A stretch of 47,499 nucleotides of DNA from an uncultured Candidatus Saccharibacteria bacterium (GTDB taxonomy: Bacteria > Patescibacteriota > Minisyncoccia > Phycocordibacterales > CAIZLB01). A model generated the notes under the pieces. It did not search any database, was not told the DNA's origin, and saw only the letters and a list, made by a program, of their open reading frames with translations. The stretch covers positions 1-47,499 of the forward strand of contig CAZVIP010000006.1 of the NCBI GenBank assembly GCA_964627085.1, given 5' to 3'. Of this stretch, positions 17,762 through 20,005 are shown in pieces (position 1 is the first letter of the stretch; each line of letters begins with the position of its first letter). The position numbers and the translations under genes are program-made.

Positions 17762-19216
17762 TTACTCAGCTTTCTTCTGAACAGAGATACCGAGCTCGAA
17801 TAGTTGTTCTGTACTTACTTCAGATGGCGAAACCATCATTGGATCACGTCCCTCACCTGTTTTTGGGAATGGCATCACTTCTCGGATATTTGGTTCATTC
17901 TCGAGGAGCATGATGAGTCGGTCAAAACCCCAAGCAATCCCGCCGTGTGGAGGTGTACCAGATTTGAATGCATGGAGCATGTGGCTAAAGTTTTTTTCTA
18001 CAGCCTCTTTCTCATATCCAAGAATTTCAAAAACTTTGAGTAATGATTCAGGTTGGTGGTTTCGAATACTTCCGCCTCCAATTTCAAAGCCATTGAGTAC
18101 AATGTCGTATTGTGCCGCGAGGATTTTCTCTAGGTCTTTGTCAGTTCGATTTGCAGATGCAAGTGTTTCTCTGTGTGCTGGTTGTGCCGCTGAAAATGGA
18201 TTATGTGTAAATGTCCATCCAGATTGTGGAAGTCCGTCTGCACCCTTTACTACCTGTTTATCATCTTTTTCAAAGAATGGAAAATCGACAACCCAGCAAA
18301 ATGCGAGGAGGTCTGGATTGTTTTTGTCTTCACCTTCTCTGATATCGGGTCTATCATTGCCGTATTTTGACATTGCTTCTGCATATGGGATTCGTGGGAA
18401 TGGTATTTGAGCGATTTTTTTATGTGGGTAAAGAGTTGCCACTGTCTCAATCAAAAGTTTCTCAGTGAGAGCCATGATGTCTTCTTGTTCAACGAAACTC
18501 ATTTCCATGTCGAGCTGAGTGAATTCCGGCTGTCTGTCCCCACGTGTGTCCTCATCTCGCATACATTTTGCAAACTGGAAATATTTTTCAAAACCCGCAG
18601 TCATGAGAAGTTGTTTGTACTGCTGTGGTGATTGTGGAAGTGCATAAAAAGCACCTCTCTCAAGTCTTGATGGAACGATGAAATCTCTCGCGCCTTCCGG
18701 TGTTGATTTTGTAAGGAGAGGTGTTTCGATTTCGGTGAAGCCCTCTTTATCCAAAAGATCACGTACAAGTTTTGTTACCCTGTATCTGTTCTTGATGTTT
18801 TTGTTTAGTCGTGCATTTCGTAAATCAAGATATCGGTACTTGAGTCTAGTCTCTTCTCCGACTTCGCGTGTATCGCTATGTAATTCATATGGAGGTGTTT
18901 CTGATTCATTGAGGACTTTGATATCGAGCACTTCGAGCTCGATTGCGCCATTTTGTTTATCAGCTTGCACATTTCTCTCTGGGCGCGCATTAACCTTACC
19001 TTTCACTTCAACAACCCATTCATCGCGAAGTGATTTAACAGTTTCTTTGAGCTCATCGCTGACGCCCGGGAGTACGACACCTTGTACGAGTCCTGTCTTG
19101 TCTCTAAATTCAAAAAACACAAGTTTACCTTGATCACGTCTAACATGTATCCAGCCTTTGATCAATACTTCGTTCCCTGTCTCTGTGTTTAAATTTTCGA
19201 TATATATTCTTTTCAT
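17762..19216 (-). CDS. aspS: Aspartate--tRNA ligase, short bacterial type lacking the GAD insertion domain
   Basis: RRDQG, RLKYRYLDLR, STPEGARDF, LPQSPQ, RDED.R.DRQPEFTQLD, GGGSIR, PPHGGIA.G.DR. Confidence 0.95.
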   Translation of the reverse strand: MKRIYIENLNTETGNEVLIKGWIHVRRDQGKLVFFEFRDKTGLVQGVVLPGVSDELKETVKSLRDEWVVEVKGKVNARPERNVQADKQNGAIELEVLDIKVLNESETPPYELHSDTREVGEETRLKYRYLDLRNARLNKNIKNRYRVTKLVRDLLDKEGFTEIETPLLTKSTPEGARDFIVPSRLERGAFYALPQSPQQYKQLLMTAGFEKYFQFAKCMRDEDTRGDRQPEFTQLDMEMSFVEQEDIMALTEKLLIETVATLYPHKKIAQIPFPRIPYAEAMSKYGNDRPDIREGEDKNNPDLLAFCWVVDFPFFEKDDKQVVKGADGLPQSGWTFTHNPFSAAQPAHRETLASANRTDKDLEKILAAQYDIVLNGFEIGGGSIRNHQPESLLKVFEILGYEKEAVEKNFSHMLHAFKSGTPPHGGIAWGFDRLIMLLENEPNIREVMPFPKTGEGRDPMMVSPSEVSTEQLFELGISVQKKAE

Positions 19217-19231
19217 ATTTGTAAAAATTTT

Positions 19232-19453
19232 ATAAATAAAATCGCCCCTGCGAACCTGTTTGAATAATCAAAAGTTGATTAGTCTATAGATTCGCAGGGG
19301 CGATTGTGGTCGCGGTGCCACCCTGTTTTTTGCTTATGTATGCATGTCGGAGCATATGCAGGATATCGGGTCCGGAGGGTTCTACTTGTACGGCTTTGTA
19401 GGGCCATATTTTCTTCCCTCTACCTCGCCAGTGTCAGCTGGGTTGTTGGTATG
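19232..19453 (-). promoter_or_regulatory. T-box riboswitch (Asp, GAC specifier) with intrinsic terminator
   Basis: CAGGG-UGGCACC-GCG T-box (19325-19311) pairing with CGC-CCCUG (19302-19295); competing 15-bp terminator stem with U-rich tail; GAC in a short 5' hairpin; upstream of aspS. Confidence 0.88.
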
Positions 19454-19459
19454 TATACA

Positions 19460-19468
19460 AGTATAACA
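19460..19468 (-). promoter_or_regulatory. Extended -10 promoter for the T-box/aspS leader
   Basis: TGtTATACT on the minus strand about 19 nt upstream of Stem I. Confidence 0.65.
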
Positions 19469-19490
19469 GATGTTTTTAGGATGTCTTCTA

Positions 19491-19519
19491 TTGACAATAT
19501 CACATATATGGTGTATTAT
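19491..19519 (+). promoter_or_regulatory. sigma70 promoter, divergent from the aspS promoter
   Basis: TTGACA (19491-19496), 17-nt spacer, TATTAT (19514-19519). Confidence 0.75.
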
Positions 19520-19624
19520 ATATATGTAAAGTTCTTTGACTTCTGCATCGTTACACATGGCTCAAAGTAATCATAATTTGATTATTTCGAGCCATGTGTA
19601 ACTACCCTCGTGGCACCCACAACC

Positions 19625-20005
19625 ATGAAAAAAACAGAAAAGGAATATGGATTTTACAAGTCAAAAGGCCAGAAATTGTCGATGAGACTTGACCGTCTCA
19701 GGAGCAAACTCCAAGCATTAGAGTATTATGTTGATGCATCAGAGCTGTCTCTCCCATCAGATTTGAAATGGTATTCAGATCAAAAAAGATGGTTCAGGAC
19801 TGCAAAAGACTCAAGTGATCGTGAGACAATGGTTGGCCTCTTCTCATCAGTTCGAGAAGAAGCAAATGGCTTATTCATCTATCAAGGTGAGATAAGCAAG
19901 GCCAAAGAGCAAATCAAAATGCTCAAAATCATAATTCCCAGATTGATGCTTAAGAGAGCATTGATTAAACAAGAGGCGAAATACTTCGCAGATCTTGGTT
20001 GGTAA
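19625..20005 (+). CDS. Hypothetical basic, helical protein
   Basis: ATG at 19625 (alternative GTG 19610); flanked by a promoter and a terminator. Confidence 0.7.
   Translation: MKKTEKEYGFYKSKGQKLSMRLDRLRSKLQALEYYVDASELSLPSDLKWYSDQKRWFRTAKDSSDRETMVGLFSSVREEANGLFIYQGEISKAKEQIKMLKIIIPRLMLKRALIKQEAKYFADLGW

Follow-up and report, generated by a model that had tools for sequence, protein, structure and literature searches.

The stretch of DNA analysed here (the window, 47,499 nucleotides, nt), contig C6, belongs to a genome of 0.896 Mb that comprises 23 contigs and is 91% complete. On its minus strand lies aspS, the gene of an aspartyl-tRNA synthetase (AspRS), and the 393-nt gap between aspS (17762-19216) and a divergent open reading frame (ORF) on the plus strand (19610-20005) holds the leader that is the subject of this work. 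Judged by its sequence and its relatives, this leader is very probably a T-box riboswitch with tRNA-Asp(GUC) as its ligand, which would control aspS by attenuation of transcription. The features of the locus are as follows.

17762-19216, minus strand: aspS, 484 amino acids (aa), bacterial-type AspRS without the insertion domain, the sole AspRS found in the genome
19460-19487, minus strand: promoter, with the -35-like AAGACA (19487-19482), TG (19468-19467) and the -10 box TATACT (19465-19460)
19422-19450, minus strand: Stem I, consisting of C-stem, bulge, inner helix and apical loop; both helices covary
19450-19448 with 19424-19422, minus strand: outer helix of Stem I, ACC with GGU, the C-stem of the K-turn
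19447-19445, minus strand: bulge AAC of Stem I
19444-19443, minus strand: AA of the K-turn, where the family has GA, opposite GA at 19426-19425
19441-19438 with 19431-19428, minus strand: inner helix of Stem I, CCAG with CUGG
19437-19432, minus strand: apical loop CUGACA of Stem I
19433-19435, minus strand: specifier GAC (Asp), then a conserved A at 19432
19375-19420, minus strand: Stem II, with the proximal helix GAGGG (19420-19416) paired to CCCUC (19379-19375)
19413-19411 opposite 19386-19383, minus strand: S-turn of Stem II, GAA opposite AGUA
19408-19403 with 19394-19389, minus strand: distal helix of Stem II
19361-19374, minus strand: linker CGGACCCGAUAUCC between Stem II and Stem III
19341-19360, minus strand: Stem III, a 5-bp helix UGCAU/AUGCA with a 10-nt loop, then an A-rich linker (19340-19326)
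19295-19325, minus strand: antiterminator, with A1 (19325-19321 with 19299-19295) and A2 (19313-19310 with 19303-19300)
19320-19314, minus strand: T-box bulge UGGCACC, 7 nt, with UGGC at 19320-19317
19233-19305, minus strand: intrinsic terminator, hairpin 19305-19240 and U-run 19241-19233

An earlier note, made from the letters of the window, had proposed a T-box with an ultra-short Stem I and a terminator before aspS in a genome of the candidate phyla radiation (CPR), and this proposal is supported by homologous leaders, by the tRNA of the genome and by covariation. The product of the downstream gene reached 614 bits against NF001750 (aspartate--tRNA ligase; cut-off 443) and 545 bits against TIGR00459, which confirms its naming as aspS. 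The 484-aa protein was matched in two stretches of the 590-position bacterial profile, and therefore the bacterial AspRS insertion (GAD) domain is missing; AspRS orthologues in relatives have 464-470 aa. For the 80 aspS loci of public genomes that come closest to it, the titles read Candidatus Parcubacteria, Paceibacterota, Nomurabacteria or Patescibacteria group, and because of these titles the CPR assignment is sound, in agreement with the size of the genome.

The strongest argument that the triplet in the apical loop is a specifier is the agreement of triplet, downstream gene and discriminator complement. ARAGORN found 33 tRNA genes in the genome, and its tRNA-Asp has the anticodon GUC and the 3' end ...CGGCCGC-G, that is, the discriminator G73. 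GAC pairs with the GUC anticodon and UGGC with GCCA, so that the match of UGGC to G73, given as established in the earlier note, is now read from the tRNA-Asp of the genome itself. The other in-frame triplets of the loop do not fit UGGC: CUG would call for tRNA-Leu (A73), UGA is a stop codon and ACA would call for tRNA-Thr(UGU), which ends in U. The loop was parsed in 54 distinct leaders, 8 rows having been dropped earlier as duplicates or partial matches, with this outcome.

GAC, 16 of 54 leaders: UGGN base C in 13, U in 3
AAC, 12 of 54 leaders: UGGN base C in 7, U in 3, unread in 2
AUC, 11 of 54 leaders: UGGN base U in all
GUC, 6 of 54 leaders: UGGN base U in all
UGG, 2 of 54 leaders: UGGN base C in both
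Loop unparsed or misaligned, 7 of 54 leaders: left out

All 17 Ile and Val leaders thus have U as the UGGN base and both Trp leaders have C; the 26 Asp and Asn leaders in which it could be read divide into 20 with C and 6 with U. The discriminator is A73 in tRNA-Ile and tRNA-Val and G73 in tRNA-Asp, tRNA-Asn and tRNA-Trp (those of Asp and Asn were checked here), and with this usual identity U stands opposite A73, and C or a wobble U opposite G73. An A follows the triplet in all parsed Asp, Asn, Ile and Val leaders. As to the genes, ileS was the best family behind AUC in 8 of 8 cases, the ORFs being cut by the locus ends and so scoring below the full-length cut-off, and GUC preceded valS in 5 of 5; in five phylum-level loci, GAC preceded aspartate--tRNA(Asn) ligase in 2 of 2 and AAC either this ligase or bacterial aspS in 3 of 3, all above cut-off. 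Inspection by eye of two class-level loci added UGG before trpB and AUC before ileS. As a separate observation, the GUC (Val) T-boxes L114:1501-1645 and L129:1501-1658 stand before ORFs of 179 and 214 aa, respectively, that belong to no NCBIfam family.

Homologous leaders were found well beyond the window. When the leader was compared by BLAST with 61 related genomes, 11 matched including its own, the others being 9 of 36 from the same family and 1 of 24 from other families of the order, and the exact T-box 12-mer stands upstream in 18 of the 80 named aspS loci; 22 distinct aspS leaders were collected. The inner helix of Stem I occurs in the compensatory variants CCAG/CUGG, CCGG/CCGG, GUGG/CCAC, UCGA/UCGA, GCC/GGC and GUC/GAC, and the outer helix as ACC/GGU, GCC/GGC, UUCC/GGAA, AGC/GCU and GAC/GUC. 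When the 22 Stem I modules were aligned with MAFFT, blind to structure, 80.4% of the cells were paired (65.2% after shuffling) and 6 of 7 pairs were compensatory; none of 500 shuffles came as high, and slid controls gave 28-56%.

A covariance model, R1, was made from a MAFFT alignment of 12 full leaders and a hand-written structure of 21 pairs comprising the C-stem, the inner helix of Stem I, the proximal helix of Stem II, A1 and A2; Stem III and distal Stem II, which MAFFT did not align, are left out of the covariation counts. Over the window and 88 loci R1 gave 26 matches, 24 of them distinct; the remaining aspS loci gave no match, and two that carry the T-box 12-mer, L035 and L061, went undetected. 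It also matched 8 of 151 genomes in an even sample of the class and 24 of 151 in an even sample of the phylum, there with 1-3 matches per genome. Model-fitted alignments lean to the structure of the model, a bias guarded against by the blind MAFFT alignment and the slid controls. With this in mind, the 24 distinct aspS leaders were 95.8% paired with 16 of 21 pairs compensatory, and 37 class- and phylum-level leaders were 95.3% paired (66.7% shuffled) with 20 of 21 pairs compensatory; the covariation score of the latter set was 0.708 against 0.205, was reached by none of 500 shuffles, and slid controls did not exceed 53.6%. All five pairs of the proximal Stem II helix are compensatory, and A1 and A2 are 97-99% paired with compensatory changes.

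The 3' part of the leader contains the switch. The T-box CAGGG-UGGCACC-GCGA (19325-19310) pairs with UCGC-CCCUG (19303-19295) and includes the pairing of CAGGG-UGGCACC-GCG with CGC-CCCUG noted before. Because 19305-19295 is shared by antiterminator and terminator, the two are mutually exclusive, as the earlier note had stated; its stem of 15 bp, on the other hand, is to be replaced by an 18-bp outer stem in a 66-nt hairpin of 27 pairs in all, with about 30 nt between the 18-nt strands and UUUUAUUU behind it. Each evaluated alone, the terminator has a computed stability of -37.8 kcal/mol against -9.1 kcal/mol for the antiterminator. The minimum free energy of the whole leader is -72.2 kcal/mol (z = -5.4), and none of 200 shuffles was as stable. 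In an automated test, 20 of 22 aspS leaders and 27 of 33 leaders from the class and phylum samples showed a hairpin on the 3' strand of the antiterminator with a U-run behind it; 2 and 6, respectively, failed. Together with the terminator of the window, these homologues bear out the coupling of a short Stem I to termination. The leader of the window is very probably one member of a class of T-boxes of this build, short in Stem I and coupled to a terminator, that occurs across the Patescibacteria.

It might be argued that the 3' hairpin hides a ribosome-binding site and that control is translational, or dual, rather than by termination, since short Stem I's with an apical specifier are described only in translational T-boxes in the paper on the T-box database TBDB (PMC7778990) and in a review (PMC7583486). 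The position of the hairpin speaks against this: it ends 24 nt before the aspS ATG and passes at once into UUUUAUUU, and the U-run ends 17 nt before the ATG. No purine-rich Shine-Dalgarno sequence was found in or beside the 3' strand of the hairpin in the window leader, and the conserved combination of hairpin and U-run in the homologues also disagrees with such a role. Translational or dual control is therefore extremely improbable in our view.

Transcription attenuation also agrees with the 5' end of the leader. AAGACA lies 16 nt upstream of TG-n-TATACT (19468-19460), the extended -10 already recognized on the minus strand, and transcription probably starts at about 19454-19452. Of 48 homologous leaders, 39 have a hexamer resembling a -10 box, with at least 5 matching positions out of 6, within 45 nt upstream, a count without a chance baseline; it ends 3-8 nt before the start of the model in 26 of those 39, and TG is carried by 21. 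Since the -10 is directly upstream, the transcript would start at the K-turn, and a long Stem I would find no space there; a longer conventional Stem I further upstream had been considered in the earlier note, and in the window this place is taken by the -10 box. The hairpin CCAG-CUGACA-CUGG (19441-19428), with GAC and then A in its loop, is present as first described, and the apical loop measures 5-8 nt in nearly all leaders.

Between Stem I and the antiterminator, some of the first assignments had to be revised. The stretch of Stem II was aligned by cmscan to Stem II of the Rfam T-box family RF00230, and an AGUAGA-like motif, corresponding to the S-turn, occurs in 39 of 48 leaders. Stem II was seen at the outset, whereas the GGUA of its proposed S-turn (19424-19421) is the 3' strand of the K-turn C-stem. 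The stretch 19374-19361 had been likened to the IIA/B pseudoknot and its CCGUUA box; it is present, but a pseudoknot there was rejected, as the stretch has only 14 nt and its arms CGG and CCG are 1-2 nt apart. By eye and in the cmscan alignment the IIA/B pseudoknot cannot form in the window, and CGGACCCGAUAUCC may at most be a vestige of the IIA/B and F-box region. The spacing between Stem II and Stem III is 14 nt in the window and 6-14 nt in close relatives, and by eye the full IIA/B pseudoknot with CCGUUA is seen in distant CPR leaders. Stem III lies at 19360-19341 as proposed, and inspection of relatives showed a hairpin of different sequence at its place.

The K-turn had been regarded as not visible. 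In the family its layout is (C-stem)-NNN-GA-N ... N-GA-(C-stem), in the same orientation as in RF00230, and over 48 leaders (14 rows dropped as duplicates, partial or misaligned) the 5' GA was found in 40 and the 3' GA in 42, so that the family does have a K-turn. In the window the geometry and the 3' GA are present and the 5' strand has AA in place of GA (positions 1b and 2b). This variant was found in 4 of the 48 leaders, namely that of the window, L105, L108 and L132. As contigs from three other runs have the same letters across 19414-19481, the A is not an assembly error.

Searches of Rfam place the leader at the border of the known family. Over the whole window there were no matches at gathering thresholds. 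At relaxed thresholds RF00230 aligned end to end with 19455-19293, E = 0.0039 (601 nt), with a score below the cut-off; this is the Infernal check with RF00230 suggested in the earlier note. In this alignment AGGGUGGCACCGCG...CGCCCCU matches the consensus at high posterior probability, and 74 distal Stem I positions of the model are replaced by 4 nt, in accordance with the claim that there is no T-loop platform. Besides the leader (E = 0.0014), the 0.9-Mb genome gave no RF00230 candidate, and the statement that the other synthetase genes lack such a leader thus extends to the genome, where a single T-box was found. None of 20 related CPR leaders reached the RF00230 cut-off, and 13 of the 20 gave E of at most 0.001 with 36-66 bits; such scores below the cut-off mean that routine annotation would miss CPR leaders. 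The canonical features that the window leader fails are the distal platform, the IIA/B pseudoknot and the Rfam score, and by every functional criterion tested here it is a T-box.

Several points weigh against a functional, tRNA-Asp-responsive attenuator. The RF00230 score was 23.4 bits against a gathering cut-off of 93, the K-turn has A and not G at position 1b, and no K-turn-binding protein of the L7Ae family was found in the genome (91% complete). According to the review, a transcriptional T-box generally depends on the long Stem I platform to capture its tRNA fast, and in an actinobacterial T-box deletion of the pseudoknot cut tRNA binding about 1,200-fold, of which a substitute hairpin recovered 200-fold (PMC7583486). 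These points could be taken to mean that the leader is a decaying T-box, a copy no longer responsive, with the K-turn G changed to A and the pseudoknot lost, that would act as a constitutive and partly leaky terminator. AA at positions 1b and 2b in place of the GA seen in 40 of 48 leaders, the absence of the pseudoknot and of an L7Ae-family protein, and the importance that the review gives to K-turn and pseudoknot in short Stem I T-boxes (PMC7583486) are in line with such decay. Nevertheless, the specifier with its A, the S-turn, the UGGC bulge, A1 and A2 are all intact and canonical, and aspS is the only AspRS gene found, so that a non-responsive copy would throttle an essential gene behind a terminator of -37.8 kcal/mol. 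Moreover, the AA variant recurs in three other leaders and the A is seen in contigs of three further runs, and close relatives also lack the pseudoknot with the rest kept under covariation. We consider decay very unlikely, and continue with the leader as a probable tRNA-Asp sensor.

The alignment of aspS leaders proposed in the earlier note confirmed that the stems covary and contradicted a strict conservation of GAC, as AAC stands at the same loop position before orthologous aspS in a sister genus (g2, 6 genomes) and in several other lineages. AAC leaders before an AspRS gene are those of L005, L006, L008, L009 and L010 (g2) and of L023, L037, L055, L061, L099, L106, L108 and L118; in L055, L106 and L108 AAC goes with UGGU, a wobble against G73. 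In five genomes (that of the window, G004, G005, G020 and G051) asnS was above cut-off in none and gatB in all, and one AspRS gene was found in each. The tRNA-Asn(GUU) has G73 in the genome of the window, in three g2 genomes and in that of L055. A GAC loop that is not conserved had been named as grounds for giving up the specifier, and in form this is what was found; because the genomes tested are without asparaginyl-tRNA synthetase (AsnRS), the replacement of GAC by AAC instead supports the specifier reading. The AspRS of these genomes is probably non-discriminating, and each lineage would then monitor one of the two tRNA substrates of this enzyme.

From the same observations it could be proposed that the window leader responds to tRNA-Asn, alone or along with tRNA-Asp: its AspRS is probably non-discriminating, asnS is below cut-off and gatB present in all five genomes, tRNA-Asn shares G73, and AAC occurs in the same loop before orthologous genes. 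The loop of the window, however, reads GAC, and to pair with it the anticodon GUU would have to form G-U between its position 36 and the first base of the codon, a pairing on which no T-box specifier is known to depend. The clean alternation of G and A at one position among the leaders also suggests that each reads one tRNA. A response of the window leader to tRNA-Asn is thus very unlikely, and tRNA-Asp(GUC) is retained as its ligand. Two loci deserve mention in this context. In L007 (G004, same genus) a GAC leader (1306-1535) stands before an archaeal-type aspartate--tRNA(Asn) ligase (ORF 1666-2958; 466 bits, cut-off 353), a case of a gene type replaced behind a retained riboswitch. In L099 an AAC T-box (1371-1681) begins 13 nt past the 5S rRNA gene that closes an rRNA operon, and could be reached by readthrough from the rRNA promoter.

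Anatomy, conservation, covariation and the agreement of specifier, gene and discriminator are observed directly; for tRNA binding, Stem II docking and readthrough we infer the following course. The transcript would start a few bases before the K-turn, which bears the 4-bp helix with the apical GAC and its A. The anticodon GUC would pair with GAC, and the adjacent S-turn of Stem II would dock on the codon-anticodon helix, as in the actinobacterial ileS T-boxes of known structure. The 3' GCCA of an uncharged tRNA would pair with UGGC and hold the weak antiterminator, so that RNA polymerase would read on into aspS; with a charged tRNA, or none, the terminator would capture the 3' strand of the antiterminator and transcription would stop at the U-run, 17 nt before the start codon. 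Because the elbow contact and the pseudoknot are missing, tRNA capture should be slower and weaker. Speculatively, this may be compensated by Stem III stacked directly under Stem II in place of the pseudoknot, by the long structured loop of the terminator (about 30 nt), which might delay its completion, or by slow transcription in these organisms.

Compared with the canonical transcriptional T-boxes of RF00230 (Bacillus tyrS, glyQS type), the window leader has in common the K-turn geometry at the base of Stem I, a specifier followed by a purine, the AGUA/GAA S-turn of Stem II, Stem III, the UGGN bulge within A1/A2, a competing intrinsic terminator and an aminoacyl-tRNA synthetase gene downstream. 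It differs in that Stem I ends at the specifier, which lies in a 6-nt apical loop and not in an internal loop, in having neither distal platform (74 positions reduced to 4 nt) nor IIA/B pseudoknot, and in its host, a member of the Patescibacteria (CPR). An apical-loop specifier without an elbow platform is shared with the translational ileS T-boxes of Actinobacteria, where, according to the review, the codon-anticodon helix is expected to be held as in a clamp by the K-turn and the S-turn of Stem II (PMC7583486). There the specifier of short Stem I's is 'mounted in an apical loop', and the structures 6UFG and 6UFM are named for the actinobacterial ileS type (PMC7583486). Compared by description, the differences are the expression platform (an intrinsic terminator here, a Shine-Dalgarno sequestrator there), the gene and specifier (aspS and GAC) and the lineage; the window copy lacks the pseudoknot, and distant CPR members, by eye, have it. 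The suggestion that this Stem I is even more minimal than the actinobacterial one is supported as to the short apical-specifier type and not supported as to size, its architecture being that given in the review (PMC7583486).

In the review, short and ultrashort Stem I's are a feature of translational T-boxes, which is linked to the short time window of a transcriptional decision (PMC7583486). The TBDB paper says the same on Stem I length, and its class II model was searched only in Actinobacteria and in truncated class I hits (PMC7778990). For the Asp/Asn alternation, Clostridium acetobutylicum offers a precedent with an Asn-specifier T-box over a non-discriminating AspRS pathway, to which the AAC leaders of the sister genera may be compared. 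Asn-responsive T-box control of tRNA-dependent asparagine formation in this species was reportedly described by Saad et al. in 2012 (J Biol Chem) and 2013 (PNAS). The clostridial T-boxes have the canonical long Stem I and belong to a Firmicute, whereas here Asp and Asn alternate among orthologous leaders of the sole aspS. In the full-text literature on T-boxes, subscription papers and supplements being outside the scope, no description of T-boxes in Patescibacteria or CPR was found.

Other observations concern the surroundings of these leaders. The divergent ORF 19610-20005 of the window (plus strand) belongs to no Pfam or NCBIfam family. Between it and the aspS promoter, positions 19550-19602 form a near-perfect inverted repeat of about 22 bp, which may be an operator, as a U-run follows on neither strand, and a strong promoter match on the plus strand (TTGACA-17-TATTAT) lies at 19491-19519. 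In another Patescibacteria genome, L115:2430-2513 (minus strand) is a c-di-GMP-II riboswitch (62.6 bits, cut-off 53.5) about 0.9 kb from a valS T-box. L080:773-953, roughly 277 nt ahead of an aspS orthologue, is a UGGU T-box whose Stem I is longer and differently built. The leaders L048:1044-1129 and L027:777-863 measure about 87 nt; they have a K-turn, a short Stem I with GAC, a linker of 30-32 nt, a T-box and a strong terminator, and neither Stem II nor Stem III.

Taken together, the leaders suggest that Patescibacteria may possess a phylum-wide and so far unannotated class of T-boxes that terminates transcription without an elbow platform, has aspS, ileS, valS and trp genes under its control, changes on aspS between Asp and Asn specifiers in genomes where one AspRS would have to serve both tRNAs, and includes the leaders of about 87 nt without Stem II and III; on the strength of the sequences we regard the chances of this broader proposal as evenly balanced. 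Such a CPR class could be the missing link between the transcriptional T-boxes and the translational class of Actinobacteria. If true, the elbow platform would not be a requirement of transcriptional T-boxes, and the platform rule given in the TBDB paper (PMC7778990) and in the review (PMC7583486) would be contradicted by a class, conserved and with covarying pairs, in which a terminator goes together with a short Stem I. The leaders of L048 and L027, if working, would be the smallest T-boxes known, and members of 90-160 nt would provide natural minimal templates for asking how much T-box a kinetic decision needs. In organisms without AsnRS, the change between GAC and AAC before their only aspS would give a readable handle on how the supply of Asp-tRNA and Asn-tRNA is balanced. 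For the biology of the CPR, the finding would mean that even these genome-reduced bacteria keep an RNA-based control of their aminoacyl-tRNA synthetase genes, one that standard Rfam annotation misses.

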